From the NCBI GenBank assembly GCA_017961325.1, contig JAGCXM010000015.1, positions 9,408-73,407 on the forward strand: a stretch of DNA of 64,000 nucleotides, in the 5' to 3' direction. Below, in pieces: positions 1 through 43,207 of the stretch; the first letter of the stretch is position 1, and every line of letters starts with the position of its first letter. The translations under genes and the position numbers were made by a program. The DNA is from a bacterium. GTDB lineage: Bacteria; UBP6; UBA1177. A model generated the notes under the pieces. The model was not told the DNA's origin. It worked only from the letters and a program-made list of their open reading frames with translations, and made no database searches.

Positions 1-640
1 TTACCCGATAAACGCCATGGGCATAAGCAAGGCGATGATGGAGCACGTCATCTATGCGAACGCAAGAGTCGCTGCGGAACGCGGCGGAACCGTCATCTGC
101 TGCACTCGTTACGGCAACGTTATGTGCTCGCGCGGCTCGGTAATCCCGCTTTTCATCGACCAGATCCATGCGGGAAATCCCATAACTATAACAGATCCGA
201 ATATGACGCGTTTCCTGATGAACCTCGACGAGGCGGTAGAACTTGTCAGATTCGCTTTCGGCCACGCCAATCCGGGTGATCTCTTCATTCAGAAGGCGGA
301 TGCGTCGACAATCGGAGACCTGGCAAAAGCTGTGCAGAAACTTTTCGGAGACACCGGAACGAACATTATCGGAACGCGCCACGGCGAAAAACTTTACGAA
401 ACCCTCATGACGAGAGAAGAAAGGCTCCGTTCGGAAGATATGGGAAAATACTTCCGCGTCGCAGCCGACAACCGCGACCTCAACTACGACAAGTTCTTCG
501 TTCAGGGCGAGGTTCATACGATGGCCGACGAGGCTTACACGAGCCACAACACGACGAGGCTTGATGTCGAAGGAACCGTCGCAAAAATCAAGACTGCCGA
601 CTATGTCAAAGAGGAACTTCAGGGGATCCGCCACAACTAA
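1..640 (+). CDS. C-terminal part of a UDP-GlcNAc 4,6-dehydratase/5-epimerase (CapE/FnlA/WbjB-like); the 5' end lies upstream of the window
   Basis: Conserved RYGNVMCSRGSVIPLF..ITITDPNMTRF motif typical of the CapD/CapE/FnlA polysaccharide dehydratase C-terminus. Followed in operon order by CapF- and CapG-like genes. Confidence 0.7.
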   Translation, partial: YPINAMGISKAMMEHVIYANARVAAERGGTVICCTRYGNVMCSRGSVIPLFIDQIHAGNPITITDPNMTRFLMNLDEAVELVRFAFGHANPGDLFIQKADASTIGDLAKAVQKLFGDTGTNIIGTRHGEKLYETLMTREERLRSEDMGKYFRVAADNRDLNYDKFFVQGEVHTMADEAYTSHNTTRLDVEGTVAKIKTADYVKEELQGIRHN

Positions 641-651
641 AAGAGGCTTCA

Positions 652-1893
652 ATGAACGTGCTCGTTACCGGTGCGGCTGGTTTCGCAGGCCGCAATCTTG
701 TTGAAAATCTCAAAAACATCCGCGACGGCAAAAACAGGACGAGACCGGCCCTTTCGATAAGTGAAATTTTTGAATACGACCTCGGAAACACCGCGGAAGA
801 GCTTGACGAATGGTGCAAAAAAGCAGATTTCGTCTTCAATTTAGCCGGCGTAAACAGACCGAAAGACCCGAAGGAATTCAGAGAAGGGAATTTCGGTTTC
901 GCTTCGACCCTGCTCGATACGCTGAAAAAGCATGCAAACCCGGCTCCGGTCATGCTTTCGAGTTCCATCCAGGCGACTCTTGCCGGGCGTTTCGGAACTT
1001 CGGAATACGGTCTCAGCAAAAAGGCGGGCGAAGAACTTTTCTTCGATTACGCAAAAGAAACCGGCACTCAGGTTTTCGTCTACCGCTTTCCGAACCTCGT
1101 CGGAAAATGGGTGAGACCGAACTACAACAGCGCGGTCGGCACATTCTGCCACAACATTGCGAACGGTCTTCCGATAACGGTGAACGATCCGGACGTAGTG
1201 CTCGAAATGCTTTTCATAGACGATCTGATCGATGAAATGCTCGATGCGATGGAAGGTCATCCGCACAGATGCGACTATCCCACAGCGGGCGAAATCGTTG
1301 ACGGCGTCGAATCCGACGGCCTCACTCCGCTCTGGAGAGACTGCGGCAGATACTGCGGCGCAAAAATCACGCACAAGGCGACTCTGGGTTACATAGTCGA
1401 GTGTCTGAACCGCTTCCGTGACCAGCCGAAAACGCTGATGATGCCAGATATCGCTCCGAACAGTTTCGAAAAAAAGCTCTATTCGATGTATCTTTCGTAT
1501 CTTCCGAAAGAAAAGATTGCTTTCGACCTCAAAATGAACTGCGATGAAAGAGGTTCTTTCACCGAAATAATGAAGACTTTCAATCACGGTCAGTTTTCAG
1601 TAAACATCAGCAGACCCGGCATAACGAAAGGGGAACACTGGCACAACACGAAGTGGGAGTTCTTCATCGTCGTGAGCGGTCACGGCCTCATTCAGGAACG
1701 CAGGATCGGAAGCGGCGAAGTGATCGAATTCGAGGTGAGCGGCGAAAAGATCCAAGCAGTCCACATGCTTCCGGGATACACTCACAACATAATCAACCTT
1801 TCCGAAACCGAAAATCTAGTCACGCTGATGTGGGCGAACGAGACTTTTGACCCGGATCACCCCGACACATTTTTTGAGAAAGTCGTGAAATAG
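652..1893 (+). CDS. CapF/FnlB/WbjC-like bifunctional reductase/epimerase (N-terminal NAD-binding SDR domain plus C-terminal cupin)
   Basis: N-terminal VLVTGAAGFAG Rossmann motif. C-terminal HWHNTKWEFFIVVSGHG cupin signature. Sits between the FnlA-like and the 2-epimerase genes. Confidence 0.65.
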   Translation: MNVLVTGAAGFAGRNLVENLKNIRDGKNRTRPALSISEIFEYDLGNTAEELDEWCKKADFVFNLAGVNRPKDPKEFREGNFGFASTLLDTLKKHANPAPVMLSSSIQATLAGRFGTSEYGLSKKAGEELFFDYAKETGTQVFVYRFPNLVGKWVRPNYNSAVGTFCHNIANGLPITVNDPDVVLEMLFIDDLIDEMLDAMEGHPHRCDYPTAGEIVDGVESDGLTPLWRDCGRYCGAKITHKATLGYIVECLNRFRDQPKTLMMPDIAPNSFEKKLYSMYLSYLPKEKIAFDLKMNCDERGSFTEIMKTFNHGQFSVNISRPGITKGEHWHNTKWEFFIVVSGHGLIQERRIGSGEVIEFEVSGEKIQAVHMLPGYTHNIINLSETENLVTLMWANETFDPDHPDTFFEKVVK

Positions 1894-1902
1894 GAGAAAA
1901 GA

Positions 1903-3069
1903 ATGACCAGCTGGAAAAACAACGGAAAACTGAAACTTCTGATAATCGTAGGTACGAGGCCCGAGATCATCCGCCTTGCCGCAGTCATCAAAAAGTGCAG
2001 GAAGTATTTCGATACGATCCTAGCCCACACCGGTCAGAACTACGACTACAACTTAAACGGCGTCTTTTTTCACGACCTCGAACTTGACGATCCGGAAGTC
2101 TACATGGATGCTGTCGGCGAAAACCTCGGTCAGACTATGGGAAACATCATCGCGAAAAGCTATGAGCTTATGGTTGAACTAATGCCTGATGCGGTTTTGG
2201 TGCTCGGTGACACCAACAGCTGTCTTTCGGTCATCGGCGCAAAACGGCTGCACATCCCGATATTCCACATGGAGGCAGGCAACCGCTGCAAGGACGAATG
2301 CCTTCCCGAAGAGACGAACCGCCGCATCGTCGATATAATTTCCGATGTCAACATGGCTTATTCCGAACATGCCCGCAGATACCTCGCCGACTGCGGTCTG
2401 CCGAAGGAACGCACCTACGTCACCGGTTCCCCTATGGCTGAAGTCCTTCACACGAATCTTGAAAGAATCGAAGCTTCCGGCATTCACGAAAAACTCGGTC
2501 TCGAAAAAGGGAAATACATCCTTCTTTCCGCTCACAGAGAGGAGAATATCGATACCGAAAAAAATTTCACAAGCCTTTTTAACGCGATAAACGCTATGGC
2601 TGAAAAATACGGCATGCCGGTTCTTTACAGCTGCCACCCGAGAAGCCGCAAAAGACTGGAGGCAAGCGGATTCAAGCTCGACAGGCGTGTCATTCGGCAT
2701 GATCCTCTCGGTTTTCACGACTACAACTGCCTGCAGATGAACGCATTCTGCGTCGTCTCCGATTCCGGAACTCTTCCCGAAGAAAGCAGTTTCTTCGCTT
2801 CGGTCGGACATCCATTCCCCGCAGTCTGCATCAGGACTTCGACGGAACGCCCCGAAGCGCTCGACAAAGCGTGCTTCATCCTCTCCGGCATTGACACTCC
2901 CGGACTTTTGCAGGCGGTCGACACCGCAGTCGAAATGGTGAAAAGCGAGCTGAACGGCGGCGCGGTTCCAGTTCCCGACTATACCGACGAAAACGTCTCC
3001 GACAAAGTCGTCAAAATCATCCAGAGCTATACCGGCATCGTGAACAGAACCGTTTGGAAAAAATCATAA
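1903..3069 (+). CDS. UDP-N-acetylglucosamine 2-epimerase, non-hydrolysing (CapG/FnlC/WecB family)
   Basis: LLIIVGTRPEIIRLAAVI, VLGDTNS, HMEAGNRC motifs of the WecB family. An RBS (GGAGAAAAG) precedes the ATG. Confidence 0.8.
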   Translation: MTSWKNNGKLKLLIIVGTRPEIIRLAAVIKKCRKYFDTILAHTGQNYDYNLNGVFFHDLELDDPEVYMDAVGENLGQTMGNIIAKSYELMVELMPDAVLVLGDTNSCLSVIGAKRLHIPIFHMEAGNRCKDECLPEETNRRIVDIISDVNMAYSEHARRYLADCGLPKERTYVTGSPMAEVLHTNLERIEASGIHEKLGLEKGKYILLSAHREENIDTEKNFTSLFNAINAMAEKYGMPVLYSCHPRSRKRLEASGFKLDRRVIRHDPLGFHDYNCLQMNAFCVVSDSGTLPEESSFFASVGHPFPAVCIRTSTERPEALDKACFILSGIDTPGLLQAVDTAVEMVKSELNGGAVPVPDYTDENVSDKVVKIIQSYTGIVNRTVWKKS

Positions 3070-3125
3070 CGCCGGCTTTCCAGCACCTGAACCTTGTTAT
3101 TTATTGACTTTAACTGTAATTTTAA

Positions 3126-3160
3126 TATGTTTCACGCGCGAAATTTGAGGATTGAAATAG
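3126..3160 (+). promoter_or_regulatory. Possible internal sigma-70-like promoter upstream of the tagD-like gene
   Basis: TTGACT, then about a 15-17 nt spacer, then an A/T-rich -10-like element (TTTTAATAT) in the 100-nt gap. Weak support. Confidence 0.25.
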
Positions 3161-3169
3161 AGGAAAATC

Positions 3170-3622
3170 ATGAAACGCGTCATAACTTACGGCACATTTG
3201 ATCTTTTGCATTACGGTCATATCAATCTTCTGCGCCGTGCAAAAGCGTTAGGAGACTATCTGATCGTTGTCATATCAACCGATGAATTCAACTGGAACGC
3301 GAAACACAAAAAATGCTATTTCAATTATGAACAGAGAAAAGCCCTCGTTGAAGCTGTGAGATACGTTGATCTTGTTATTCCTGAAGAAAACTGGGAACAG
3401 AAAAGAAGCGATATGCACGAATATCACATAGATACATTCGTAATGGGTGATGACTGGCAGGGCAAATTCGATTTTCTGAAAGAAGAGGGGGTTGAAGTCG
3501 TTTATCTGCCGAGAACTCCGGAAATCAGCAGCAGTCAGATCAAAAAAGACCTGTACGATGCAAATGCAGTTGACGGCGAAAGCAAAGTGAACCACGATGA
3601 CATTGATACGGATCCCAAATAA
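3170..3622 (+). CDS. tagD: Glycerol-3-phosphate cytidylyltransferase-like (TagD/TarD family cytidylyltransferase)
   Basis: GTFDLLHYGHINLLRRAK (the HxGH nucleotidyltransferase motif). Length of about 150 aa is typical for TagD. Confidence 0.75.
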   Translation: MKRVITYGTFDLLHYGHINLLRRAKALGDYLIVVISTDEFNWNAKHKKCYFNYEQRKALVEAVRYVDLVIPEENWEQKRSDMHEYHIDTFVMGDDWQGKFDFLKEEGVEVVYLPRTPEISSSQIKKDLYDANAVDGESKVNHDDIDTDPK

Positions 3623-4404
3623 TGGAGACACTTAACGGCAACAAAAATAACGCACATCATCCGATGATTTCGGTTGTAATGCCCAATTATAACGGAATAC
3701 GATTCGTTGAAGACGCTCTAAAAAGCGTACTGAACCAGACTTACAAAAACTTGGAACTGATTGTAGTTGATGACTGCTCGACAGACAATTCGCCTGACAT
3801 CATTGAGAAATTTGCACAAAACGACGGACGCATAAAACTGTTCAGACAAAAAAACAACAGCGGTGTCGCCGCAGCACGAAATACCGCCGTTCAAATGGCC
3901 GCAGGCAAATACACGGCCCTTATTGACAACGACGACATCTGGGAACCGGACAAATTGGAACGACAGCTGGCTCTGGCCGAGAACGGTGCTGACATAGTCT
4001 ACTCTTCCTACGACTTTACGGATGAAAACGGGAAAAGCGTAAAACGTCCCTTCATAGTGCCGGAAGAAGCGACTTTCCGTTCGATGCTTACCTCCAACTT
4101 CATAGGCTGTTCAACGGCGTTTGTAAGGTCGGATCTTATGAAAAGCCATCCGTTCAATGCAGATTACTATCATGAAGACTACGTTTTATGGATGGAGCTG
4201 CTGAAACTGCCGGTAAAGGCCGTCGGAGACAAAAAAGTGCTGATGCATTACCGGCTGGTTGCAGGATCAAGGTCGAACAAAAAGGCAAACGCAGCCAAAG
4301 AACGCTGGAACACCTACAGAAAAGCACTGGGGCTGAACGTTTTTCAGAGTGCGCTTGCATTTGCAGGCTATGCTGTTAAAGGATTGCTGAAATACTACTT
4401 CTGA
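3622..4404 (+). CDS. Family 2 glycosyltransferase
   Basis: ISVVMPNYNG...YKNLELIVVDDCSTDNS...LIDNDD (GT2 DXD-type motifs). ATGA overlap with the tagD stop. Confidence 0.75.
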   Translation: METLNGNKNNAHHPMISVVMPNYNGIRFVEDALKSVLNQTYKNLELIVVDDCSTDNSPDIIEKFAQNDGRIKLFRQKNNSGVAAARNTAVQMAAGKYTALIDNDDIWEPDKLERQLALAENGADIVYSSYDFTDENGKSVKRPFIVPEEATFRSMLTSNFIGCSTAFVRSDLMKSHPFNADYYHEDYVLWMELLKLPVKAVGDKKVLMHYRLVAGSRSNKKANAAKERWNTYRKALGLNVFQSALAFAGYAVKGLLKYYF

Positions 4405-4412
4405 GGAATCTT

Positions 4413-5246
4413 ATGGAAAAGTCTCAAAACGGAAAACTGAAATCGAAACTGCTTGAAATGATGGAATGGTTTCATTCGTTCTGTGTAAAAAACAATATCC
4501 GTTACTATGTTCTCGGCGGAACGATGCTGGGTGCCGTGCGGCATCAGGGATTCATACCGTGGGATGACGATATCGATGTCGGGATTCCAAGCGAAGACTA
4601 TGTCAAATTGAACGAACTGTTCCTCAATTCCGGACAATCCAAATATCTCTTCGAGTCTCCGGAAACAGATGCCGACGATTTCTTTTACAGTTTTTCCAAA
4701 CTATACGACACTGCAACGACACTGATAGAAAATACGAGATGCAAAATAAAACGCGGAATCTATATCGATATCTTTCCTTTGGCGGGAATGGGTAACGATG
4801 AAAGGGAAAGTTCTTCGCGATTCCGAATGATTGACAATAAATTCAAATATCTTCTCGCCAGGAGTACGGGAATACGCAAAGGAAGAAGTTTCTATAAAAA
4901 TATGGTCGTAAATTTAGTCGGAATGATTCCGGATTTCATTTCCAAGGATAAAGCAAGGCTGCTGGAACTAAACCGTCTGGCAGGCGAAAGACCTTTTTTT
5001 GAATATAAAATCGGCGGGAATCCCTTCGGAGCATGGCGCGACAAAGAGATAATGGAGAGTTCGATCATGGGGAAACCTGTCCTGTATAATTTCGAACATA
5101 TTAAGGTATTCGGCGCAGAAAAAGCCGATGAATATTTAACCCACCTGTATGGAAACTGGAGAGAACTTCCTCCGGTTGAGAAACGGATGTCCCACCACGA
5201 CTACATCATGTTAGATCTGGAAACACCATACATACAGAACAGATAA
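4413..5246 (+). CDS. LicD-family phosphotransferase (transfers a phospho-alcohol from a CDP donor)
   Basis: YYVLGGTMLGAVRHQGFIPWDDDIDVGIP is the LicD/fukutin-family signature. Confidence 0.7.
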   Translation: MEKSQNGKLKSKLLEMMEWFHSFCVKNNIRYYVLGGTMLGAVRHQGFIPWDDDIDVGIPSEDYVKLNELFLNSGQSKYLFESPETDADDFFYSFSKLYDTATTLIENTRCKIKRGIYIDIFPLAGMGNDERESSSRFRMIDNKFKYLLARSTGIRKGRSFYKNMVVNLVGMIPDFISKDKARLLELNRLAGERPFFEYKIGGNPFGAWRDKEIMESSIMGKPVLYNFEHIKVFGAEKADEYLTHLYGNWRELPPVEKRMSHHDYIMLDLETPYIQNR

Positions 5247-5269
5247 TTTATGATTTCCGGTAAAAATGC

Positions 5270-6184
5270 ATGGTAAATCTGGAATTGGAAATATCGAAAG
5301 ATTTTTTTGAGAAAGAAATCAGAAATAACTTTCCTGTAACCGAAGAAAGAAAGCAGATTTGGGCCGTAGAGCTGGATTTGCTTAACAAATTCGATTCAGT
5401 ATGCAAGAACCACAGCCTAAACTACTGCGTCGGCGCGGGAACCATGCTTGGAGCGGTGCGTCACAAAGGCTTTATCCCGTGGGATGACGACATAGACGTT
5501 TATATGCTGAGAGAAGATTACGACAGGTTTTGTCTGCTTCATGAAGAATTCAAGCATCCCTATTTTCTACAGAATGCATACAGCGAACCCAATATGCTGA
5601 AATCGTTCGTAAGGCTCAGGAACAGCTGCACAACGGGCTGCACGACTCAAGATATTCACAAACGGATCAACAAGGGGATTTTTATCGATATTTTTCCTAT
5701 TGACGGTGTTTCCGACAATGTCATACTTGATAAAATTCAAAAATTCGAAGTTTTCTGGTTGAAAAAGCTGTACTCGTTATACAACAGAAGCAGAATACCG
5801 CTCTACGGCAGTTTCTTTAGCAAGATATTCCAATTCGCAGTAATCGTATCAGGCAAATTATTTATCCGTGACCGCCTTAAACTCTTTGAAACCGGCGAAA
5901 AAGTCACAAAAAGGTATTCAAAACCGGATACGCTTTTTTGGGGCAACCGTTCCATAAATTTTGACTGTCCGAAATCCAGAAGACCTCTGAGCGATTATCA
6001 GAACGTGGTCCTCATGCCTTTCGAGATGCTCGAAGTCCCCGTGCCGAGCAATTACGATGCAATGCTTTCGCAACAATACGGCGATTACATGAAAATTCCT
6101 AAGAACAAAAATGAAAATTTACACGGAAAACTTATAATTTCCACCGAATGTGATTTTGATAATTTAATGAAGAGAGCAAAATGA
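5270..6184 (+). CDS. Second LicD-family phosphotransferase (paralogue)
   Basis: YCVGAGTMLGAVRHKGFIPWDDDIDVYM LicD signature. Confidence 0.7.
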   Translation: MVNLELEISKDFFEKEIRNNFPVTEERKQIWAVELDLLNKFDSVCKNHSLNYCVGAGTMLGAVRHKGFIPWDDDIDVYMLREDYDRFCLLHEEFKHPYFLQNAYSEPNMLKSFVRLRNSCTTGCTTQDIHKRINKGIFIDIFPIDGVSDNVILDKIQKFEVFWLKKLYSLYNRSRIPLYGSFFSKIFQFAVIVSGKLFIRDRLKLFETGEKVTKRYSKPDTLFWGNRSINFDCPKSRRPLSDYQNVVLMPFEMLEVPVPSNYDAMLSQQYGDYMKIPKNKNENLHGKLIISTECDFDNLMKRAK

Positions 6185-7911
6185 TTTACGCGGCAATACT
6201 AGCGGGAGGAATCGGAAAACGTATAGAACGCCATTCCATTCCGAAACAGTTCATTACAATCGGCGGAACACCGATTATCGTTCTGACGATTCGGGAATTT
6301 CTAAAAAATCAGAGATTCGACAAATACTACATCGCAATACATCCTGACTGGAAAAATTACCTGAAAGAGCTGCTGACCGCTTCGTTCACGGCTGAGGAAT
6401 GTGCAAGAATCGAAATTGTCAACGGAGGCAGGGAACGCCTTGATTCATTCTCCAACGTTATGAACGCCGTAGTCGAAGAACACGGTTTGAATACGAAAGA
6501 CATTCTGGTTTGTCACGATTCCGTCCGTCCGTTCGTAACCCGGCAGATGATAAACGACTGCATCGACGCGACTCTGGAGCATAACTTTGCTCTAACGGTA
6601 ATCCCTACCACCGACACCATACATGTCGCGCATGACACTGAATTTATTGACGGAACACTGGAAAGAAACGGTTTATACAACGGTCAGAATCCTTCAGGCT
6701 TCAACATCGCATTGCTGAAATCTGCTCTCGACAGCTTTACGGAGGAGGCTAAAAAAAGCGTAACCGGAACGACACAGCTTATTTTAAAACTCGGTTACAG
6801 AATCAAAATCGTAAAAGGTCACGCCAGCAACTTCAAAATTACAACGGACAACGATCTGGATATCGCAGACCGCTATCTCAGATCGAAACCCAAAACCAGA
6901 AAAATCGAATTAGTTGACGTCACGCTCCGCGACGGCGGAATCGTTGTCAATTTCGATTACGGTACTGAGCGCATGCGAAAAATAAAAGAAACGCTGGAAG
7001 CATCCGGCGTTGAATATATCGAAACCGGCTATATAGACGAAAAGAAGGGAAGCCAGGAAGGACGCACGTGCTTCGACAGCGAAATTTCAATCGAAAAGAC
7101 CCTGCTTTCCGGCGGGAAAAAACCTGACGTCACATATTTTGCCATGATCGATTACGGCACTTTCGACGTCAATAAACTGCATCCGAGAACGCCGGACGGC
7201 ATAGACGGCATCCGCCTTGCGTTCCATAAGGAAAAATGGGAACAATCGGTCGAATGGGGCAGAATCATTCTGGCAAAAGGCTATGATCTTTACATCCAGC
7301 CGATGGTCAGCATGAGATACAGCGATGAAGAGTACCGTCATCTGATACAGGTATGCAACAACGAACTTGCCGGAGCAAAAGGCTTCTACGTGGTTGACAG
7401 TTTCGGACAAATGGACAATGCCGCACTGATTCACAAACTTGAAATAGCCGATCAATATGTGGATCTCTCGATGAAACTCGGTTTCCATGCTCACAACAAC
7501 CGGCAGATGGCATATTCAAACGCTCTCTCCTTCGTCGAATTCAACTCCCGTCACGACATGATGCTTGACGCAAGTATCATGGGCATGGGCAAAGGTGCAG
7601 GGAATCTCTGCACGGAACTGATAGAACAGACCCTGATCAATGAAGGGAAAAACTATGATTCGACCGTACTTTATGATGCCATTTCCGAATATTTCGCAGA
7701 ACAGCAGAAAAAAACGCCCTGGGGTTACAGCCTTGATTACTACCTTTCGTCGCTTTACTGCTGCACTCCGAGCTATATCAAGATTTTCACGGCCGACAAA
7801 CGCGTGACGACAGACGTTTTGATAGATTTGCTCAAAAACATGCCTGACGGAAAAAGAGCCGCTTGCGACAGAACGTTTGCGGCAGAATATTTAAGGAAAT
7901 ATTTTGAATGA
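6181..7911 (+). CDS. Fusion protein: N-terminal IspD/TarI-like cytidylyltransferase plus C-terminal HMGL-like (DRE-TIM metallolyase/aldolase) domain
   Basis: N-terminus IYAAILAGGIGKRI (IspD/TarI nucleotidyltransferase P-loop). C-terminus starts LVDVTLRDGG (TIM-barrel HMGL-like/pyruvate carboxyltransferase-type motif). 576 aa. Confidence 0.55.
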   Translation: MIYAAILAGGIGKRIERHSIPKQFITIGGTPIIVLTIREFLKNQRFDKYYIAIHPDWKNYLKELLTASFTAEECARIEIVNGGRERLDSFSNVMNAVVEEHGLNTKDILVCHDSVRPFVTRQMINDCIDATLEHNFALTVIPTTDTIHVAHDTEFIDGTLERNGLYNGQNPSGFNIALLKSALDSFTEEAKKSVTGTTQLILKLGYRIKIVKGHASNFKITTDNDLDIADRYLRSKPKTRKIELVDVTLRDGGIVVNFDYGTERMRKIKETLEASGVEYIETGYIDEKKGSQEGRTCFDSEISIEKTLLSGGKKPDVTYFAMIDYGTFDVNKLHPRTPDGIDGIRLAFHKEKWEQSVEWGRIILAKGYDLYIQPMVSMRYSDEEYRHLIQVCNNELAGAKGFYVVDSFGQMDNAALIHKLEIADQYVDLSMKLGFHAHNNRQMAYSNALSFVEFNSRHDMMLDASIMGMGKGAGNLCTELIEQTLINEGKNYDSTVLYDAISEYFAEQQKKTPWGYSLDYYLSSLYCCTPSYIKIFTADKRVTTDVLIDLLKNMPDGKRAACDRTFAAEYLRKYFE

Positions 7912-8872
7912 ACAAACAGAATACCGCTATAAGGCACAAATGAAAATATACACGATTTTTGATGATTTTGACGAAAAAGCCGTAAAAACAATAAAGGATG
8001 CCGGCGGAGAGCTGACAGTTCATCCGTACGGAACTCCGCGGCCCGATTCGATTCAAATGAAATCCATTCTGGAAGAATATGACTGCGTTATCATCGGCAC
8101 AACACAGAAGATAACGGAAGAGATGTTTGAGAATATCTCCCTACCCCGTCTGATTGCGACAGCTTCCGTCGGTCTTGATCATATCAAAATCCCCGAAGAC
8201 AAGAAAAGTCTCGTCAGCATCATCAATACGCCGAAAGCAAACGCACAGTCGGTTGCCGAATATACGATGGGATGCGCCCTCTACTGCTGCAAAAGACTAA
8301 CCGAAGGGAACATGCTTTACAGACATGGCAAAAACAATAAAAACCTGTTCCGGAAACCCGAAGATTTATCCGGAAAGATCATGGGAGTCATCGGCGCGGG
8401 AAATATTTCAGTACGCATTATGGAATACGCCAGATTCTTCGGAATGGAAGTTCTCTGTTGGACCAAAACACCGGAAAATCACAAAGATTTAGAGGAAAAA
8501 GGCATCAAGTTCGTCACTCTTGACGCACTCGCCGAAACGGCGGACGTGATTTCAGTGAATCTGCCGAACAATTCGGGTACGCAGCGACTGATTTCCTCCG
8601 GCATTGTCAAAAAAATGAAGGAAACGGCAATTTTCATAAGCGTTTCGAGACTGGAAACCATAGACATCGATGCCTTATTTGAAAAGGCCCTTAAGCATAA
8701 AAGCTTTTACGTCTGTCTCGATCTGGACATAGACGAAGGCGTCATAAAAAAGATTCCGGATCAGCCGAACGTTACGGTCACACCTCATACAGCCGGCGGC
8801 ACCGTCGAGACAAGAAAAAGAATGTTTAGGGAACTTGCCGAACAAATAACTGATATTATTAGAAAAAGTTAA
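7904..8872 (+). CDS. D-isomer-specific 2-hydroxyacid dehydrogenase family, NAD-binding
   Basis: GVIGAGNISVRIMEYARFFGMEV Rossmann motif and overall 2-HADH architecture. ATGA overlap with the upstream gene suggests translational coupling. Confidence 0.65.
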   Translation: MNEQTEYRYKAQMKIYTIFDDFDEKAVKTIKDAGGELTVHPYGTPRPDSIQMKSILEEYDCVIIGTTQKITEEMFENISLPRLIATASVGLDHIKIPEDKKSLVSIINTPKANAQSVAEYTMGCALYCCKRLTEGNMLYRHGKNNKNLFRKPEDLSGKIMGVIGAGNISVRIMEYARFFGMEVLCWTKTPENHKDLEEKGIKFVTLDALAETADVISVNLPNNSGTQRLISSGIVKKMKETAIFISVSRLETIDIDALFEKALKHKSFYVCLDLDIDEGVIKKIPDQPNVTVTPHTAGGTVETRKRMFRELAEQITDIIRKS

Positions 8873-8885
8873 AAGGGAGACTTTC

Positions 8886-9941
8886 ATGTTACTTAAAATA
8901 TACCGAGTTGCCAAAAACATATACCATGAAATAAGCGGAGTGTGGCTTCACAAGTACAAAGTTGACTTGGGAATTCACGACAAATGGTCACTCTTCAAAA
9001 AACTGAAATACAACCGACTCGGTTTTACGAATGAGGATTACCACAACTTCGACCTGAAACACAATGATTACCATGATTACATCAGTTTCCGCGAAAGATG
9101 GCGGCTGGAAAACATCAACGGAAGATTTGCCTATATTCTCGGCGAAAAACTGATGTTCGAGCGTATTTTCGGGAAATTTATCAATGTGCCGCATATAAAC
9201 TTCTGGGTAAAGAACGGCAAATTCATTGATATGGATGCCGGAGAAACAACGGATGTTCTTTCTGTCTTAAAAACAAAAGGAGAACTGATTGCAAAACCTA
9301 CCCGAAGCGTAGGCGGAGGAACCGGAATACACAAAATCGCTTTTAACGGACAAAATTACAGTATAGACGGTAAAGACTGTTCCGAAGACGAACTTGTAAA
9401 AGCCGTTTCATCATGGGAAGAATACATTGTCGTCGATTACATCAAACAGGCGGAATACTCAAGCAAAATATATCCGGAAACAACAAATTCCATAAGAATC
9501 GTTACTGCACGGAGAAAAAGCGGTGATTATGAGTTACTACTGGCTTTTCACCGTTTCGGCTCCGATTTAAGCAGACCGGTTGACAACATCAGCAGCGGCG
9601 GACTCGGTGCTTTTGTTGACATCGACTCAGGATGTTTGGAAAAGGCTAAACGAAAGACTGATCCTAAGATAATGCATTCTGTTCATCCCGATTCTCACGG
9701 GCAGATAGAAGGGGTAGCAATTCCTAATTGGGCTGACATAAAAGAAAAACTTCTGCATGTGCACCGCTGCTTTCCATTTTACGTATTTCTTGCGTGGGAT
9801 GTTGTTGTCGGAGAGAACGGTGAACCGTATATTCTTGAAATAAACCGCGGTTGCGATTTGGGCGTACAGAGAGCAAAACCATTGCGGCATGAAAAATTGG
9901 GCGAATTTATGCGTGAATACGGATTATTGGACAATCGTTAA
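8886..9941 (+). CDS. Sugar-transfer-associated ATP-grasp enzyme (polysaccharide-locus ATP-grasp ligase)
   Basis: Sequence resembles the PF14397-type ATP-grasp family found in glycan loci (IRIVTARRKSGDYELLLAFHRFG...SSGGLGAF). Lies inside the polysaccharide locus. Confidence 0.5.
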   Translation: MLLKIYRVAKNIYHEISGVWLHKYKVDLGIHDKWSLFKKLKYNRLGFTNEDYHNFDLKHNDYHDYISFRERWRLENINGRFAYILGEKLMFERIFGKFINVPHINFWVKNGKFIDMDAGETTDVLSVLKTKGELIAKPTRSVGGGTGIHKIAFNGQNYSIDGKDCSEDELVKAVSSWEEYIVVDYIKQAEYSSKIYPETTNSIRIVTARRKSGDYELLLAFHRFGSDLSRPVDNISSGGLGAFVDIDSGCLEKAKRKTDPKIMHSVHPDSHGQIEGVAIPNWADIKEKLLHVHRCFPFYVFLAWDVVVGENGEPYILEINRGCDLGVQRAKPLRHEKLGEFMREYGLLDNR

Positions 9942-9961
9942 AAACCATAAGGACAGGAAAT

Positions 9962-11239
9962 ATGCGGGTTCTGGTTATAGCTCACAATGTTATAAGTGAA
10001 ACGAACAATATGGGAAAGACGCTGCTCTCTTACTTCAAGGATTTCGCTCCTGAAGAAATTGCCGAGTTTTATATTCAGGACAAAGACCCGAACAATGCTG
10101 AAGTTGCGAACAATTATTACCGTTTTACGGATAAAGATGCCCTTAAATCGGTTTTCGGCATCAGGACGAAGCATGTTTTCAAAATATCTGAGACCGGGAA
10201 AGAGACGACAAAGCCGAATAACAAAGGAGCTGCAGAATCAATAAGACAATACGGCAGAAAAAGAAATGCTTTCGTTTACATTGCGCGAAACGCCGTATGG
10301 TCTCTTGCACACTGGAAAACCAAAGAATTTCTCGGCTGGCTTCATGATTTCAACCCCGATGTGATTTTTTTCATGGCAGGGGATTACAGCTTTATGTTTA
10401 AAATTGCCCGTGAAATCAAGGAAATGTTAAATAAACCGCTAGTCGTATGCTGTGTCGATGATTACTTCTTCTTTAACAGAAACGATAGAACATTTTTGGG
10501 CAGACTTCAGCATCGGGCTTATATGAAGAGCGTCCGAAAAACAATGGCGGAGGCAAGCTGCATCTTTACAATTTCCGACTTGATGGGTGAGGCATATCAC
10601 AAACTGTTCGACAAGCCCTGCCGCACGCTGCACACGAGTGCAAAAAAACGCGAATCCGGATGCGGAAGCACAGGAAGGATGCTGGCTTACTTCGGGAACC
10701 TCAGTTTCAAAAGATATGAGCAGCTTATAGAAATCGGCAAAACGGTAAAAAAATTAAAAATAAACGGCATTGACGGAGTTGATGTCTATTCCGCCGAAAA
10801 AAATCCGGAATATCTTCAAGGTTTGACCGAAGAAAACGGAATCCGTTTTCACGGCGAGATTCCGTCATCAGAAGTCGCCGAATGCATGGACAGGTGCATG
10901 GCGGTAATTCACACGGAATCTTTCAGACAAAGAACGCAGCAGATGGTCAGATATTCCGTATCAACAAAAATTGCCGATTCACTGCTCAACGGTCCGTGCC
11001 TGATTGCATATGGTCCGGAAGCGGTGGCATCCATAGACTATCTGAAAAAAAATAAAGCCGCGTATGTTATTACAAAAAAAGAGGATCTTGAAAATGGTCT
11101 GCTGGATATTCTTTCAAACGAAAAACTGAGAACCGGAATCATCCAAAACGCCCGTGAACTCGCAGCAAAAAACCATGATGAGGCGCTAAATCCGAAAAAG
11201 GTTCGGGAATGGCTGCAGACGGTGTCTGAAAACAATTGA
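9962..11239 (+). CDS. Putative GT4-like glycosyltransferase
   Basis: N-terminus MRVLVIAHNV. C-terminus NGPCLIAYGPEAV...AAYVITKKEDLENGL is a retaining-GT (GT-B)-like donor-binding region. Confidence 0.45.
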   Translation: MRVLVIAHNVISETNNMGKTLLSYFKDFAPEEIAEFYIQDKDPNNAEVANNYYRFTDKDALKSVFGIRTKHVFKISETGKETTKPNNKGAAESIRQYGRKRNAFVYIARNAVWSLAHWKTKEFLGWLHDFNPDVIFFMAGDYSFMFKIAREIKEMLNKPLVVCCVDDYFFFNRNDRTFLGRLQHRAYMKSVRKTMAEASCIFTISDLMGEAYHKLFDKPCRTLHTSAKKRESGCGSTGRMLAYFGNLSFKRYEQLIEIGKTVKKLKINGIDGVDVYSAEKNPEYLQGLTEENGIRFHGEIPSSEVAECMDRCMAVIHTESFRQRTQQMVRYSVSTKIADSLLNGPCLIAYGPEAVASIDYLKKNKAAYVITKKEDLENGLLDILSNEKLRTGIIQNARELAAKNHDEALNPKKVREWLQTVSENN

Positions 11240-11253
11240 CGGAGGAAATTTAA

Positions 11254-12249
11254 ATGTTTGATATTCCGATAGTTTTACTGATGTTCAAAAGAGACAAGAT
11301 TACGCAGATCATAGACAGAATCAGAGAAGTAAAACCTAAAAAAATATACCTTGTCTGTGACGGCGGCCGCAACGATGAGGAATGGGTGCTTGTCAGAAAG
11401 TGCAGAGAACTTGCTGAAAAATCCATAGACTGGAACTGCGAAGTCGTAAAAAATTATGCCGATGCCAACCGAGGAGTATATGCAAATATAGGAGAAGGGG
11501 CGAAGTGGGTTTTTTCGCGGGAAAAACGGGCGGTATTTCTTGAAGATGACAACTTGCCGGAGGTCACATTCTTCAGATTCTGCCAGGAAATGCTTGAAAG
11601 ATACGAGAATGACCGGCGGGTTCTCTGGATATGCGGAACAAATTATCTGGGAAAATACGAACCGTTTGACGGCGTCAGCTATTGTTTTACCAAGCATATG
11701 CTCCCCTGCGGCTGGGCTTCCTGGTCGGAAAAGTTCCTGCAGATGTATGACGGAAATCTGGACGGATGTGATAATCCGAGAATTATGAAGAATATCCCGA
11801 AACAGTATCTTAACGGGGCGCTGTACAGACAATGCAGGGCTGAATGGATGCGCGAATACCGAAGGCGGGTTGCCGGCAAACGTTTCGTTTCCTGGGATTT
11901 TCAAATGGATTTTTCAATTAAAGCGAACTCCGTTTACGGTATCTGCCCCACTTTGAATCAGATTAAAAACATCGGGGTGGACGAGGTTTCAATTCACGGA
12001 GGGAATTCAATTAACGCAATAATGACACGCCGTTTCTGCGGCATGGATTCATATCCGATAAAATTTCCCCTTGTTCACCCGGCGACTGTGCTGCCGGATG
12101 AGGATTTTGAATCAAAAATAGGAGCCGTTATCCTTCGTCCCCTGCCGTTACGAATAAGATCATGGATAAATCCTTTTGTACGCAAGCTGTTTTCAATACC
12201 TGAAGGAGTTAAAACGAAGGCTTATTTCAAACATTTTTTTCATAAATAA
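11254..12249 (+). CDS. Putative GT-A-fold glycosyltransferase (GnT-I-like)
   Basis: IPIVLLMFKRDKITQ...YLVCDGGRNDEE resembles the GT13/GnT-I-type N-terminal core. Sits in the glycan locus. Confidence 0.35.
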   Translation: MFDIPIVLLMFKRDKITQIIDRIREVKPKKIYLVCDGGRNDEEWVLVRKCRELAEKSIDWNCEVVKNYADANRGVYANIGEGAKWVFSREKRAVFLEDDNLPEVTFFRFCQEMLERYENDRRVLWICGTNYLGKYEPFDGVSYCFTKHMLPCGWASWSEKFLQMYDGNLDGCDNPRIMKNIPKQYLNGALYRQCRAEWMREYRRRVAGKRFVSWDFQMDFSIKANSVYGICPTLNQIKNIGVDEVSIHGGNSINAIMTRRFCGMDSYPIKFPLVHPATVLPDEDFESKIGAVILRPLPLRIRSWINPFVRKLFSIPEGVKTKAYFKHFFHK

Positions 12250-12253
12250 ATAA

Positions 12254-13477
12254 ATGCACACCAGAGATCTCAAATTTAAAGTCAATCCCCAAGAATTGCG
12301 CGACAAATTCAAATATATTGCGGTCATACTAATCACTTTAATCATCAGCGGAAGCGCAGTTGCAAATATATTTCCGATCATGATGCCGTGCAGAGCGATT
12401 TTGGCACTGCTCTTCATCATTCCTTTTTTTAATTCCTTGGCGCATAAATGGAGACGGATTTTCATATATTTTGCTTCATTCGGAACAATGTTTACCCTTT
12501 CGCTCATTATGAATCATGACAATTACAAATACATTTTAATGGTTTTGTTCAACATCTTCATCGGCTACGCTATGGCAACATCGTTGGACAACATAAAATT
12601 CATGAAAACATTTCTGAATATAATGACGCTTACGGCGGCAGTATCCATAGTCTGCTATTTTCTGCTGAACTTCACTTCCGTCAATCTCCCGTTTACCGTC
12701 CGCAGCAGTTTTAACGGGGTCAGATACGGAGTCGGATATATTTTCAACTATCTGATCTATAGCAAGTGGAGAAACTGCGGAATGTTCTGGGAACCGGGTT
12801 TAATGGCGACCTTTATGATTTTCAGCTTACTCATAGATTCAATTGTGTTTAAGTCCCCGAATAAATTACGTACGGCAATCTATTTCACAGCTGCAATTCT
12901 AACAAATTCATCTGCCGGCATTATTATTTTGCTGCTATGCGTCGCTTTTATTCTGTTCAGGAACTACGGAAAGGAAAAAGCATCAAAAACAGAAATTCTG
13001 CTCTTTCTATTCACAATTATTATCGTCATATTCGTTTTTTTAGAATATGACAACATTATAAACTTAATCATTGAATTCGGGAACAGCAAAATACAAAGTG
13101 TTGCAAAGAAACTGCTGTCAGATAATTTAAGTTCTTCCCAGAGAATGAACTCAATAATATTCTGGTGGAACAGATTCCTGAGCAGTCCTCTTTGGGGAAC
13201 AGGCATAGGTTCTGTAAATGAAAATTTTATCTGGGACACCGCCACATCCTTCATGTTCTTGGGATTATTCGGTTTATTGGGTGCCACTTACACCATTGCA
13301 TGGATAAGAGGAATAATGAAACTCAGATTAAATTTCTCTTCTAGAATCATCCTATGCGTTATAATTCTATTGATTTTAAACAAAGAACCTCATGCCGCTC
13401 TTATGTTCAGCTGGTTTCTCTTGTTTTCGCTGCTTTGTAACGGATTGGGTACTGTAAAAGACTCTGAAAAGGCTTGA
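12254..13477 (+). CDS. wzy: Wzy-like O-antigen/oligosaccharide polymerase (polytopic membrane protein)
   Basis: About 10-12 predicted transmembrane segments, very hydrophobic and with low sequence conservation, as expected for Wzy. Immediately upstream of wzx. Confidence 0.5.
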   Translation: MHTRDLKFKVNPQELRDKFKYIAVILITLIISGSAVANIFPIMMPCRAILALLFIIPFFNSLAHKWRRIFIYFASFGTMFTLSLIMNHDNYKYILMVLFNIFIGYAMATSLDNIKFMKTFLNIMTLTAAVSIVCYFLLNFTSVNLPFTVRSSFNGVRYGVGYIFNYLIYSKWRNCGMFWEPGLMATFMIFSLLIDSIVFKSPNKLRTAIYFTAAILTNSSAGIIILLLCVAFILFRNYGKEKASKTEILLFLFTIIIVIFVFLEYDNIINLIIEFGNSKIQSVAKKLLSDNLSSSQRMNSIIFWWNRFLSSPLWGTGIGSVNENFIWDTATSFMFLGLFGLLGATYTIAWIRGIMKLRLNFSSRIILCVIILLILNKEPHAALMFSWFLLFSLLCNGLGTVKDSEKA

Positions 13478-13484
13478 AAGAAGC

Positions 13485-14981
13485 ATGGGAATTTGTTTTA
13501 ACAAAGTAAAAGGCATAATAAACTCAATTCCGTTAGGAGTGCGGTCAGCTGTCGTCTATACTACGGCGACTGTCTTTTCACGCGGTCTGGCAATAATTAC
13601 AGTTCCTATCTTTACCCGTCTTATGTCAACGGAACAGATAGGTGTTGTAAATCTATACAACACCTGGCACGGACTTATCAGCGTTGTCGCCACTCTCTCT
13701 TTGACCTCCGGCGGATTTGCCGTTGCAATGAAAGAATATGAAAAAAGAAGATACGAATATATATCTTCAGTTCAGGCCCTTACATCCCTTGTAGCCGTTC
13801 TTATAGCCCTCATTTATATAACCGCCCCGTCTTTTTGGAACAATCTGCTTGGACTGCCTGCCGCCTTAATGATTATAATGATATCAGGCTTCCTGTTTGA
13901 ACCTGCACGCGATTTCTGGAGATCCATGCAGAGATATGAATACAAATACAAGCTGCCGGGCGCTGTCAGTATGCTGTCGGCGCTCTTCGCCTCTTCGTTT
14001 GCAGTTCTTGTTGTTATACAAATGAAAGAGAGCGGTGCGGAAAACCTCGCCGAAGGAAGACTTGTCTCAAGCCGCATCATAACGCTGAGTGTAGCTGCCG
14101 TCATATGGATTTATCACTTTCTAAAAGGAAAAACCTTTATCAATAAGGAGTTCTGGATATTTTCCCTTAAACTGAGCATTCCGCTTATCGGTTACCAGCT
14201 TGCCGCACAGATACTTAATGTATCAGACCGAATAATGATTGACAAAATGGTCGGTAAAAGCGCGGTCGGCATCTACGGAACATTATACTCTGTCAGCTCG
14301 ATTTCCCTTCTGGTCTGGAATGCCATCAACGCATCTTTTGTCCCGTATCTCTTCCAGAACATAGAAAAAAAGGAACATAAAATTAAAGAAATTTCCTTCG
14401 GTCTCCTGGAAGCTTACGCCGCAATCGCAGTCGTACTGACTTTCCTTGCTCCAGAGATAGTACAAGTTCTGGCAACGGAAGAATATTTCGAGGCGATTTA
14501 CATTATGCCGCCGATTTCAGTCGGGATTTTCTTCATTTCGGTAGCACACATCTATTCCAACATATTGGTCTATTACAAAAAAACCAAATACGTTATGTAC
14601 GGCTCTCTAATCGCCGCAGTTTTGAATATTGTCCTGAACATCATATTTATTCCGGTCTACGGATATATGGCGGCGGCCTATACGACATTGCTCGGCTATG
14701 TTGTAATGGCATCGGTTGAAGCCCTGTGGTCAATAAGAATCCATCGGAAGAAAACCGGGAACAACGACAGTATCTACGACGATCGCAAGATCATGATTTT
14801 GTCCGTTGTTACTGTCGTTCTCGCACTGACCGGTCTCTTCTGGTACCAGAACAATATTCTCAGATACACTGTTATCGCAATCAGTACGGCTGCTGCCGCA
14901 TTCTTCGTAAGAAAAATGCTGAAAAACAGAAAACTGTCAAAAACGAATCAACCGGTTTGCAGAAAAAACATAAATGGATGA
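13485..14981 (+). CDS. wzx: Wzx-type oligosaccharide flippase (Polysacc_synt/MOP superfamily)
   Basis: About 12-14 TM helices. N-terminal region [25 protein letters not shown] is typical of PF01943 flippases. Confidence 0.65.
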
Positions 14982-14989
14982 GGAATCAG

Positions 14990-16234
14990 ATGCAAGACTT
15001 CAAAGATTTGAAAATAGCCGTCGCCGGCACAGGTTATGTAGGCCTGTCGCTAGCCGTTCTGCTATCGCAGCATCACGATGTAACGGCCGTCGACATCGTG
15101 CCTGAAAAAGTGGCCATGCTCAATGCAAAAAAGTCACCGATTCAGGACGAATATATCGAAAATTACATCGCGGAAAAAAAACTCAGGCTGACGGCTACGA
15201 CTGACTGCGGAAAGGCTTACACCGATGCCGATTTCGTTATAATAGCGGCACCAACGAACTACGATCCGCAGAAGAATTTCTTTGATACGAGTGCCGTCGA
15301 ATCGGTAATTGATTCGGTGATGAAGGTCAATCCGAATGCGGTCATGGTGATAAAATCGACCGTTCCCGTAGGTTTTACGAGGCATATCCGAGAAAAAAAG
15401 GGAAACTGGAACATCATTTTCAGTCCCGAATTTCTGCGCGAATCAAAGGCGCTCTTCGACAACCTCTACCCTAGCCGGATCATCGTCGGCTGCGACGGCG
15501 GAACGCGCGAAGTTGCCGGAATTTTTGCGAAACTGCTTCAGGAAGGGGCACTGAAAGATGAGATTCCGACACTTTTCATGGATTTCACCGAGGCCGAAGC
15601 GGTAAAACTTTTTGCAAACACCTACCTCGCACTGCGCGTAAGCTACTTCAACGAACTCGACACATACGCGGAAATGAAAGGACTTGACACATCGAACATA
15701 ATAAAAGGGGTCTGTCTTGATCCGCGTATAGGCGATCATTACAACAATCCGTCGTTCGGTTACGGCGGATACTGCCTTCCGAAGGACACGAAACAGCTTC
15801 TGGCGAACTATGCCGACGTGCCTGAAAACCTGATTCAGGCGATAGTCGAAAGCAACCGCACGAGAAAGGATTTCATCGCCGACCGCATTCTCGAACGCGC
15901 CGGATACTACACCGGCAGCAGCGACTGGAATGCCAAAAGGGAAAAATCGGTCACCGTCGGAGTCTACCGTCTCACGATGAAAAGCAACAGCGACAACTTC
16001 AGGGCATCGGCGATTCAGGGAATCATGAAGCGCATCAAGGCAAAGGGTGTGCCAGTGATAATTTACGAACCCAATCTTGCAGACGGCACGACTTTCTTCA
16101 ATTCGCTTATCGTAAACGACATTGAAAAATTCAAGAAAATGAGCGACGTGATAATCGCAAACCGGTTTGACGCCGATGTTCTCGGTGATGTCAAAGAAAA
16201 GGTCTACACGCGCGATTTCTTCAAGCGGGATTGA
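14990..16234 (+). CDS. ugd: UDP-glucose 6-dehydrogenase
   Basis: [21 protein letters not shown]-binding motif and [11 protein letters not shown] catalytic-Cys motif. Start set at the ATG with the GAGGAA RBS (an alternative ATG at 14978 overlaps the wzx stop). The ORF-track start at 14726 is an out-of-frame read-through across wzx and is not real. Confidence 0.85.
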
Positions 16235-43201: not shown

Positions 43202-43207
43202 GGCGCG

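Follow-up and report, generated by a model that had tools for sequence, protein, structure and literature searches.

We analyzed a stretch of 64,000 nucleotides (hereafter the window) from contig JAGCXM010000015.1 of a bacterium of the UBP6 lineage, which carries a polysaccharide locus encoding an unusual fusion protein of 576 amino acids (aa). The fusion joins a cytidylyltransferase to an aldolase-like domain and is followed by a gene for a D-2-hydroxyacid dehydrogenase. In the public record the fusion (MBP5406148.1) is a "D-ribitol-5-phosphate cytidylyltransferase" and the dehydrogenase a "hypothetical protein". Our results suggest, with a probability that we put at roughly 70%, that these genes and a neighboring phosphotransferase form a module that makes a hydroxy-acid phosphate activated with cytidine diphosphate (CDP), and not CDP-ribitol. 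The specific chemistry, in which the four activities of the module would make and attach a CDP-activated 3-deoxy-aldonic acid phosphate, is a more tentative proposal, with slightly less than even odds, and we infer all of its steps. The genes and domains of the module are the following:

5270..6184, plus strand: LicD2, a LicD phosphotransferase (Pfam LicD, 143.6 bits for a cutoff of 22.6)
6181..7911, plus strand: the 576-aa fusion of a cytidylyltransferase and a DRE-TIM aldolase (Pfam, NCBIfam, AlphaFold/Foldseek)
6181..6885, plus strand: cytidylyltransferase domain of the fusion, residues 1-235 (Bacillus subtilis TarI, 4jis, E-value 6e-48)
6892..7908, plus strand: DRE-TIM metallolyase domain of the fusion, residues 238-576, of the subfamily resembling 4-hydroxy-2-oxovalerate (HOA) aldolases (motifs DVTLRDGG and HAH; 3dxi)
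7940..8872, plus strand: D-isomer 2-hydroxyacid dehydrogenase, 310 aa (Pfam 2-Hacid_dh_C and 2-Hacid_dh)

In the proposed pathway, the DRE-TIM domain would bind pyruvate, which serves HOA-type DRE-TIM aldolases as enolate donor, on a divalent metal and add it to a phosphorylated aldose of central metabolism (glyceraldehyde-3-phosphate, erythrose-4-phosphate, or a pentose-5-phosphate). The product would be the omega-phosphate of a 4-hydroxy-2-oxo acid, i.e., a 3-deoxy-2-ulosonate phosphate (2-keto-3-deoxy-aldonate phosphate). The dehydrogenase would then reduce the C2 oxo group with NAD(P)H to give an open-chain 3-deoxy-aldonate phosphate. With this reduction the anomeric centre for activation with cytidine monophosphate (CMP) would be lost, and the terminal phosphate would be left as the handle for CDP. 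The TarI-like domain would combine this phosphate with cytidine triphosphate (CTP), yielding CDP-3-deoxy-aldonate and pyrophosphate. LicD- and TagF-like enzymes would pass an X-phosphate on from CDP-X: LicD2, or a TagF-like enzyme in other genomes, would transfer phospho-3-deoxy-aldonate to the repeat unit as a phosphodiester, while a TagD cytidylyltransferase and a second LicD protein (LicD1) of the same locus would add glycerol phosphate in parallel. The outcome would be a teichoic-acid-like side group that also bears a carboxylate. The steps fit together chemically, since the 4-hydroxy-2-oxo acids made by HOA-type aldolases are 2-oxo acids, on which D-2-hydroxyacid dehydrogenases canonically act. 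The computed [M-H]- values of the CDP adducts are 564.064 (C6), 594.074 (C7), and 624.085 (C8), to be compared with 536.069 for CDP-ribitol.

The conservation of the module is the first line of evidence. In a scan of one genome per species, the fusion is encoded at 28 genome loci beyond the window (59-85% identity). We compared the neighborhoods of 30 loci, i.e., these 28, the window, and one locus with an unfused version (L043), using tblastn and an all-against-all clustering of the adjacent open reading frames (ORFs). The dehydrogenase is present in all 30 loci (28/28 fusion loci, L043, and the window), usually as the next gene after the fusion or with only a membrane O-acyltransferase in between. 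LicD genes occur in 17 of the 30 loci, and in about 10 loci other than the window an ortholog of LicD2 (44-55% identity) immediately precedes the fusion. The loci lacking LicD often have TagF-like phosphotransferases of the CDP-glycerol type (Glyphos_transf; two clusters, in 8 and 5 loci). No conserved kinase, phosphatase, or isomerase was found among the neighbor clusters of the 30 loci, so the phosphate must come with the central metabolite. The minimal pathway is therefore composed of the aldolase, the dehydrogenase, the cytidylyltransferase, and the phosphotransferase. Neither the window locus nor the conserved neighbor clusters have a Pfam domain of a ribulose-5-phosphate reductase of the TarJ type (medium-chain dehydrogenase/reductase) or of the Bcs1 type (short-chain dehydrogenase/reductase, SDR), and homologs of KdsB and KdsC are missing from the window and from 430 kb of related loci.

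The cytidylyltransferase domain is recognized by the Pfam IspD profile (residues 3-234, 151 bits for a cutoff of 27) and by the NCBIfam model of D-ribitol-5-phosphate cytidylyltransferases (NF001183, 220 bits, above the cutoff of 166). The AlphaFold model resembles TarI in Foldseek (TM scores of 0.83-0.85), and the alignments with four crystallized TarI-type enzymes (three TarI and one Listeria homolog) reach 144-167 bits, with 34-37% identity in the Foldseek matches. Typical features of the IspD family are present, such as the CTP loop LAGGIGKR and the motif HDSVRPF. Hence, sequence and fold both place the domain in the IspD/TarI family. We then compared the 29 cytidylyltransferases linked to the aldolase, including the unfused copy of L043, with the four crystallized enzymes. 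Three TarI motifs are exchanged in 29/29 copies: QGQTPQ(S/T)F is NGQ(N/T)PxGF, TDAC(K)I is TGTTQL, and GGxDRN is GGxERLDSF. None of the aldolase-linked copies has the motifs specific to the ribitol-5-phosphate enzyme, whereas they are retained in L030 and L031, two TarI-like genes of the same habitats that stand alone. On the basis of IspD structures, we assume that the three motifs line the polyol pocket. Their alteration in all the aldolase-linked copies supports a substrate other than ribitol.

The second domain matches the Pfam HMGL-like profile (58.8 bits, cutoff 29). The motifs DVTLRDGG and HAHNN are invariant in 25 aligned homologs and the metal ligands D246, H436, and H438 are intact, which makes the domain a member of the DRE-TIM superfamily. 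Its best match in the PDB (residues 242-526) is 3dxi, a "putative aldolase" of Bacteroides vulgatus (E-value 3e-20), and Foldseek aligns it with 3DXI and HOA aldolases (3dxi, 1nvm, 4lrs) with TM scores of 0.66-0.73. In contrast, the domain is not a member of the acetyl-CoA-dependent DRE-TIM synthases (isopropylmalate, citramalate, or homocitrate), whose best model gives 36 bits (nifV) for cutoffs above 400. An acylating acetaldehyde dehydrogenase (DmpF), the partner of classical HOA aldolases, was found neither in the window locus nor among the conserved neighbors.

The dehydrogenase passes the cutoffs of Pfam 2-Hacid_dh_C (115 bits) and 2-Hacid_dh (72 bits). The motifs VIGAGN, SxSR, TPH, and LD..D do not vary in 29/29 sequences, nor do the catalytic Arg, His, and Asp, as expected for a D-isomer 2-hydroxyacid dehydrogenase. 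The mechanical ORF call starts at TTG 7904. The N-terminus MK[IA]Y[ST]IFDDF, conserved in 28 homologs, and the public annotation of 310 aa instead indicate a start at ATG 7940, which is preceded by an AAGG ribosome-binding site. This start lies 28 nt after the stop of the fusion, and the translational coupling of the two genes through overlap, put forward in the original prediction made from the sequence alone, does not hold. The best NCBIfam and PDB matches of the protein are phosphoglycerate dehydrogenases (PGDH; TIGR01327, 150 bits, and 1wwk, 137 bits). The TIGR01327 score is far below the cutoff of 454 for D-3-phosphoglycerate dehydrogenases, and the Arg of the PGDH "RS" motif, which we believe to anchor the substrate, is Gly or Ser in 29/29 homologs. 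A PGDH-like function is thus disfavored.

Other claims of that prediction fared better. It described an IspD/TarI-type nucleotidyltransferase fused to an HMGL-like domain downstream of a TagD-like cytidylyltransferase and two LicD genes. The domain scores and fold matches agree with all of this, and the C-terminal half does have a DRE-TIM domain with its metal site in place. The same source proposed to look for the fusion elsewhere, with the result given above, and to ask if it could be a frameshift of two known genes. ORF 6181-7911 is a single protein with two domains (residues 1-235 and 238-576), and the same single-ORF architecture of about 576 aa is found in more than 120 protein clusters (77-100% identity). 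The AlphaFold (AF2) model of the whole fusion has a pLDDT of 81 and a pTM of 0.59. Finally, the suggestion of an unusual CDP-activated, phospho-linked hydroxy acid is supported, as far as sequence comparison goes, by the lack of a TarJ or SDR partner, the changed TarI motifs, and the company of LicD- or TagF-like enzymes.

The fusion is widespread in rumen and gut bacteria of at least five phyla. All the carriers are metagenome-assembled genomes (MAGs), and most of those with a stated source come from rumen, herbivore gut, or human gut. The MAGs were assigned to Oscillospiraceae, Ruminococcaceae, Lachnospiraceae, and Erysipelotrichaceae, to Treponema, to Kiritimatiellia, and to Prevotella, Bacteroidaceae, and Bacteroidales. 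The high identity between phyla implies horizontal spread and strong constraint. In L043 the IspD and aldolase genes are separate, in the order of the two halves of the fusion, and overlap by 11 nt, and they are followed by the dehydrogenase, two Acyl_transf_3 genes, and LicD. We found no relatives in viral contigs, and the search of plasmids gave only distant family members (about 30% identity or less) in other contexts.

To place the aldolase domain in its family, we used residues 238-576 as a query in HMMER, which retrieved 2989 representatives at 50% clustering. Among the best 150, 104 have an extra C-terminal domain of about 190 aa, 38 consist of the aldolase alone, 5 are fused to CTP_transf_3 (KdsB/NeuA type), one each is fused to IspD, LicD, and GT2, and one to HpcH/HpaI plus the C-terminal domain. 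The CTP_transf_3 fusions occur at either terminus (P0127, P0191). The aldolase was fused independently to IspD, to CTP_transf_3 (N- or C-terminal), and to LicD, and the IspD fusion is thus a tight offshoot of a much larger aldolase family. The type of about 530 aa accounts for more than 4400 clusters from one query, named "aldolase catalytic domain-containing protein". This orphan family (L039-L041, L046-L052) combines an HOA-like DRE-TIM domain with a Maf/sialyltransferase-like C-terminal domain, and comes mostly from metagenomes and MAGs, including those of human gut and of Clostridia such as Lachnospiraceae. More distant members, with about 30% identity, were seen elsewhere. One of them (L044), annotated as "hypothetical protein", is encoded on a plasmid of Desulfobaculum bizertense (NZ_CP090010.1; positions 7995-9008 of the locus), where its gene immediately follows those of RfbH and a split transketolase. 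This neighborhood suggests that some family members play a role in pathways of branched or dideoxy CDP-sugars. Another is found in an aromatic-catabolism cluster of Priestia.

The branch of about 530 aa is a sister to that of the window, and we examined five independent contexts of it. In 5/5 of them, the aldolase gene is right after, or fused to, a CTP_transf_3 cytidylyltransferase. The one of L046 passes the KdsB models (301 bits for a cutoff of 255; TIGR00466, 173 bits for a cutoff of 155). A HAD phosphatase of 153-164 aa is present in all four contexts with enough flanking sequence, and the two that we scanned with NCBIfam score above the cutoff of 107 for the KdsC family (165 bits in L046, 134 bits in L049). 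These contexts also hold WaaZ-like, MptE-like, polysialyltransferase-like, or GT52 transferases and an Acyl_transf_3 gene, and none of the five has a KdsA or NeuB domain. The sister branch thus looks like a complete pathway for a CMP-ulosonic acid in which the DRE-TIM enzyme replaces the synthase, and may be a route to ulosonic acids that is independent of phosphoenolpyruvate (PEP). The KdsC-type phosphatase implies that the product of the synthase is phosphorylated. From these gene neighbors we infer the reaction of the family, a condensation of pyruvate and a phospho-aldose that yields a 3-deoxy-2-ulosonate phosphate. The aldolase domain of the window is 43-48% identical to the sister branch, and 101 positions are identically conserved in both, including D246, R250, D251, H436, and H438, as well as R295, T296, K313, R345, H349, K350, and the GMGKGAGN loop. 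The O-acyltransferases found beside the aldolase in both branches would fit a common polyhydroxy skeleton. A broader reading, for which the odds are somewhat unfavorable, is that the HOA-like DRE-TIM family consists of PEP-independent 3-deoxy-2-ulosonate-phosphate synthases replacing KdsA/NeuB, and that the branch of the window diverts the intermediate to a phosphodiester-linked 3-deoxy-aldonic acid and has spread horizontally over at least five phyla of gut anaerobes.

Several observations weigh against our proposal. The pyruvate and phospho-aldose substrates are predicted only from the neighbors of the sister branch, at 43-48% identity, and the two branches are consistently set apart by 41 positions, one of which (R441) adjoins the metal site. 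The distant members of the family in other contexts indicate that it is functionally plastic. The models of HOA aldolases match residues 238-491 with scores below their cutoffs (TIGR03217, 89.6 bits vs 286; NF006049, 93.7 bits vs 229), and the catalytic His of DmpG/BphI, two residues after RDG, is Ile in the window and Cys or Tyr in its relatives. The domain is thus not a classical 4-hydroxy-2-oxovalerate aldolase, and its mechanism may differ from the aldol reaction of these enzymes. None of the carriers is a cultured organism with known glycan chemistry, our full-text search of the literature found no paper on the fusion, its DRE-TIM subfamily, or 3DXI/BVU_2661, no enzyme of this subfamily is known to have been characterized, and we know of no bacterial glycan with a phospho-linked 3-deoxy-aldonic acid.

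Among the alternatives, the one that survives best, although we consider it unlikely, is that activation comes first: the TarI-like domain would activate a common phosphate of a keto- or aldo-sugar, such as ribulose-5-phosphate, xylulose-5-phosphate, or ribose-5-phosphate, the aldolase would then use pyruvate to extend or branch the CDP-linked carbonyl, and the dehydrogenase would reduce the 2-oxo acid while it is linked to CDP. The fusion of cytidylyltransferase and aldolase does suggest consecutive steps, activation precedes reduction in the synthesis of CDP-arabinitol (AbpA/AbpB) and of CDP-6-glucitol (Campylobacter jejuni HS:5), and the distant relative next to RfbH and the split transketolase stands in a context of CDP-sugar branching. 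However, the KdsC-type phosphatase that would act between aldolase and cytidylyltransferase in the sister branch implies a free phosphorylated product, and the remodeling of the cytidylyltransferase pocket relative to TarI would be unexpected for an ordinary pentose or pentitol phosphate.

It is also improbable that the module makes ordinary CDP-ribitol, or another known CDP-polyol, with the DRE-TIM domain and the dehydrogenase either supplying the polyol phosphate in an unusual way or being unrelated to it. The NF001183 score of 220 bits against a cutoff of 166, which corresponds to the public annotation, and the alignments of 144-167 bits with crystallized TarI-type enzymes speak for this option. 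Yet, the module has no conserved reductase of the TarJ or SDR type, and the TarI motifs that the standalone L030 and L031 keep are replaced in every aldolase-linked copy. Moreover, CDP-ribitol would leave unexplained why an intact DRE-TIM site and a dehydrogenase are strictly co-inherited across phyla.

Still less probable is a Claisen-type route where the dehydrogenase acts as a PGDH, oxidizing 3-phosphoglycerate to 3-phosphohydroxypyruvate, the DRE-TIM domain adds acetyl-CoA, and the resulting 2-(phosphooxymethyl)malate is CDP-activated (computed [M-H]- of CDP-2-(hydroxymethyl)malate: 548.032). The best matches of the dehydrogenase are PGDHs, the DRE-TIM superfamily holds acetyl-CoA-dependent synthases (of isopropylmalate, citramalate, and homocitrate) to which the domain has weak matches, and 3-phosphoglycerate is abundant, so that an exergonic condensation would pull its unfavorable oxidation. 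This is contradicted by the low score for the PGDH equivalog (150 vs 454) and the Gly or Ser in place of the "RS" arginine, and by the closer similarity of the domain to HOA aldolases (90-94 bits) than to any synthase (at most 36). A substituted malate would also leave the KdsB-, KdsC-, and sialyltransferase-like neighbors of the sister branch unexplained.

Phosphonate tailoring, i.e., the attachment of a CMP-activated phosphonate by LicD, is very unlikely. It is brought to mind by enzymes of phosphonate clusters like Fom1, PntC, FrbC, and PhpE/F. Such clusters often join nucleotidyltransferases, HMGL-like synthases, PGDH-like dehydrogenases, and LicD (PMC6697681, PMC8942020). However, we found no PEP mutase or phosphonopyruvate decarboxylase among the Pfam-scanned genes of the glycan locus or the conserved neighbor families, and a search of all frames of the 29 loci and of the whole window for the signature of PEP mutases (EDKx5NS) gave no match. 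Lastly, a frameshift or assembly artefact joining two genes, for which one could invoke the unfused L043, is almost certainly not the explanation, given the same ORF in more than 120 clusters and in 28 independent assemblies from at least five phyla.

The preferred reading, a CDP-activated hydroxy-acid phosphate, can be set in the context of the whole locus. Bases 1-16,300 of the plus strand are a single polysaccharide locus. Its 5' part encodes FnlA (C-terminal part), an FnlB-like reductase, FnlC, TagD, a GT2 glycosyltransferase, LicD1, and LicD2. The 576-aa fusion, the dehydrogenase, an ATPgrasp_ST ligase, a GT1 glycosyltransferase, a 331-aa protein, Wzy, Wzx, and a UDP-sugar dehydrogenase follow in this order. 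The following genes of the locus bear on the module:

3170..3622, plus strand: TagD, glycerol-3-phosphate cytidylyltransferase (TIGR01518, 206 bits for a cutoff of 165)
4413..5246, plus strand: LicD1, the second LicD phosphotransferase (Pfam LicD, 136 bits for a cutoff of 22.6)
8886..9941, plus strand: ATP-grasp (ATPgrasp_ST) ligase (Pfam, 122.5 bits)

Both LicD proteins (ORFs 4413-5246 and 5270-6184) belong to the LicD family by their Pfam matches. The stop codon of LicD2 overlaps the start of the fusion by 4 nt (ATGA), and LicD2 is our candidate for the phosphotransferase that handles the proposed CDP-activated substituent. TagD is a parallel CDP-glycerol branch within the same locus, probably served by LicD1, which is only 24-36% identical to the LicD genes adjoining the fusion in other loci. 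The substituent is probably O-acylated in many relatives, where one family of Acyl_transf_3 is present in 16 loci and another in 11. The ATP-grasp ligase is present in 5 loci. It adjoins the dehydrogenase in the window, L001, L003, and L010, in the latter even though the fusion is 3.5 kb away, and lies about 4.6 kb downstream of the dehydrogenase in L007. Such a position beside the dehydrogenase would be in keeping with a carboxylate available for amidation, and the ligase may be an accessory gene that amidates the substituent in the window.

Other features of the locus and of the window are independent of the module. The 331-aa protein (11254-12249) has no Pfam or NCBIfam match, and its N-terminus (FKRDK...LVCDGG) resembles a GT-A-type glycosyltransferase. 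With its GTG start, the ORF of the UDP-sugar dehydrogenase (14726-16234) shares about 255 nt with the end of Wzx. Pfam recognizes the NAD-binding domain only from residue 96 of the ORF onward, so the true start is probably near 15010. On the 3' side of the locus (16322-20434) there are genes for an MlaD-domain protein, an ABC auxiliary lipoprotein, and an 818-aa protein resembling Wzy_C/O-antigen ligases, which suggest a diderm host. Further on, the minus strand encodes an 817-aa radical SAM protein with Radical_SAM_N2 and DUF2344 domains (27632-30085). After two tRNA genes (42959-43031 and 43056-43127) comes a partial match to a cobalamin riboswitch (43220-43280), whose 32.7 bits barely exceed the gathering score. 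This match lies inside the 5' end of an 811-aa ORF without Pfam match (43200-45635), the start of which is probably mis-called. Finally, a 1160-aa protein with an N-terminal SIR2_2 domain (48777-52259, minus strand), in an AT-rich island (GC content of 0.28-0.37 vs about 0.45-0.50 around), may be a horizontally acquired defense gene.

Side groups of glycerol phosphate, ribitol phosphate, and choline phosphate dominate the recognition of bacterial surfaces by phages, antibodies, and lectins. If the proposal is correct, the module would add to these phospho-linked groups a new, doubly anionic member, hidden until now by annotations as a ribitol enzyme and a "hypothetical protein". The module is common, horizontally mobile, and mis-annotated in rumen and gut communities. 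The proposal moreover suggests a concrete function, open to testing, for the orphan DRE-TIM family, which is very large and includes a protein of solved structure (3DXI). Should this family provide a pyruvate-dependent route to ulosonic acids, the prediction of Kdo-like or sialic-acid-like sugars from genomes of Gram-positive gut bacteria would change. The hypothesis lends itself to a direct test by liquid chromatography and mass spectrometry, as all three enzymes are soluble proteins and their predicted products can be told apart by mass.

The module can be compared with several known systems. Canonical routes to CDP-glycerol (TagD) and CDP-ribitol (TarI/TarJ) use neither an HMGL-like domain nor a 2-hydroxyacid dehydrogenase. 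The closest in logic are TarI/TarJ and Bcs1/Acs1 of Haemophilus, which likewise rely on a TarI-type cytidylyltransferase, a CDP-activated open-chain polyhydroxy phosphate (proposed here), and transfer by LicD- or TagF-like enzymes. In Bcs1 the cytidylyltransferase is also fused to a pathway enzyme (a bifunctional reductase-cytidylyltransferase). Unlike them, the module lacks the TarJ or SDR ribulose-5-phosphate reductase, has a DRE-TIM partner that would form C-C bonds, and uses a D-2-hydroxyacid dehydrogenase for the redox step. It also differs from TarI/TarJ by its replaced pocket motifs and by the carboxylate of its predicted product. The pathways of CDP-arabinitol (AbpA/AbpB), CDP-6-D-glucitol (C. 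jejuni HS:5), CDP-2-glycerol (Gtp1-3), and CDP-mannitol follow the same scheme, where a sugar phosphate, a redox step, and CTP result in a phospho-linked side group of the capsule. They have neither an aldolase or synthase step nor a 2-hydroxyacid dehydrogenase, and their products are neutral alditols.

The first step is instead reminiscent of the synthesis of Kdo (3-deoxy-D-manno-oct-2-ulosonic acid; KdsA, KdsC, KdsB), ketodeoxynononic acid (KDN)-9-phosphate, and N-acetylneuraminic acid-9-phosphate, where the compounds belong to the class predicted here, the 3-deoxy-2-ulosonate phosphates. KdsC, KdsB, and Kdo- or sialyl-transferase-like companions are found only in the sister branch, and the window does not belong to the Kdo pathway. 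KdsA and NeuB depend on PEP, whereas the enzyme studied here has a DRE-TIM fold and presumably depends on pyruvate and a metal. In the window, the keto acid would be reduced and would keep its phosphate as the site of CDP activation, whereas in the known pathways the phosphate is removed and CMP is attached at C2. The closest characterized sequences and folds are DmpG, BphI, and MhpE, which share the DRE-TIM barrel, the D...HxH metal site, and the helical C-terminal extension. The domain differs from them by its scores below the cutoffs, the missing catalytic His, the lack of an acetaldehyde dehydrogenase, and a glycan context in place of aromatic catabolism. The best structural and sequence match, 3DXI (the N-terminal domain of BVU_2661), shares the RDGG motif. 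This structure is a product of structural genomics, without assigned function, and represents the branch of about 530 aa, which has a C-terminal sialyltransferase-like domain and not an N-terminal cytidylyltransferase. CofC/FbiD (acting on 2-phospholactate or 3-phosphoglycerate), PhpF, and Fom1 also activate a hydroxy-acid phosphate or phosphonate with a nucleotide, and Fom1 has a similar architecture, in which a cytidylyltransferase is fused to PEP mutase, a TIM barrel forming C-C or C-P bonds. These enzymes belong to other nucleotidyltransferase subfamilies, the module has no PEP mutase, and their products are not glycan substituents. Overall, the module resembles the decoration of glycans with CDP-polyols in its logic and the synthesis of Kdo or KDN phosphate in its first step, and is a member of none of these systems.

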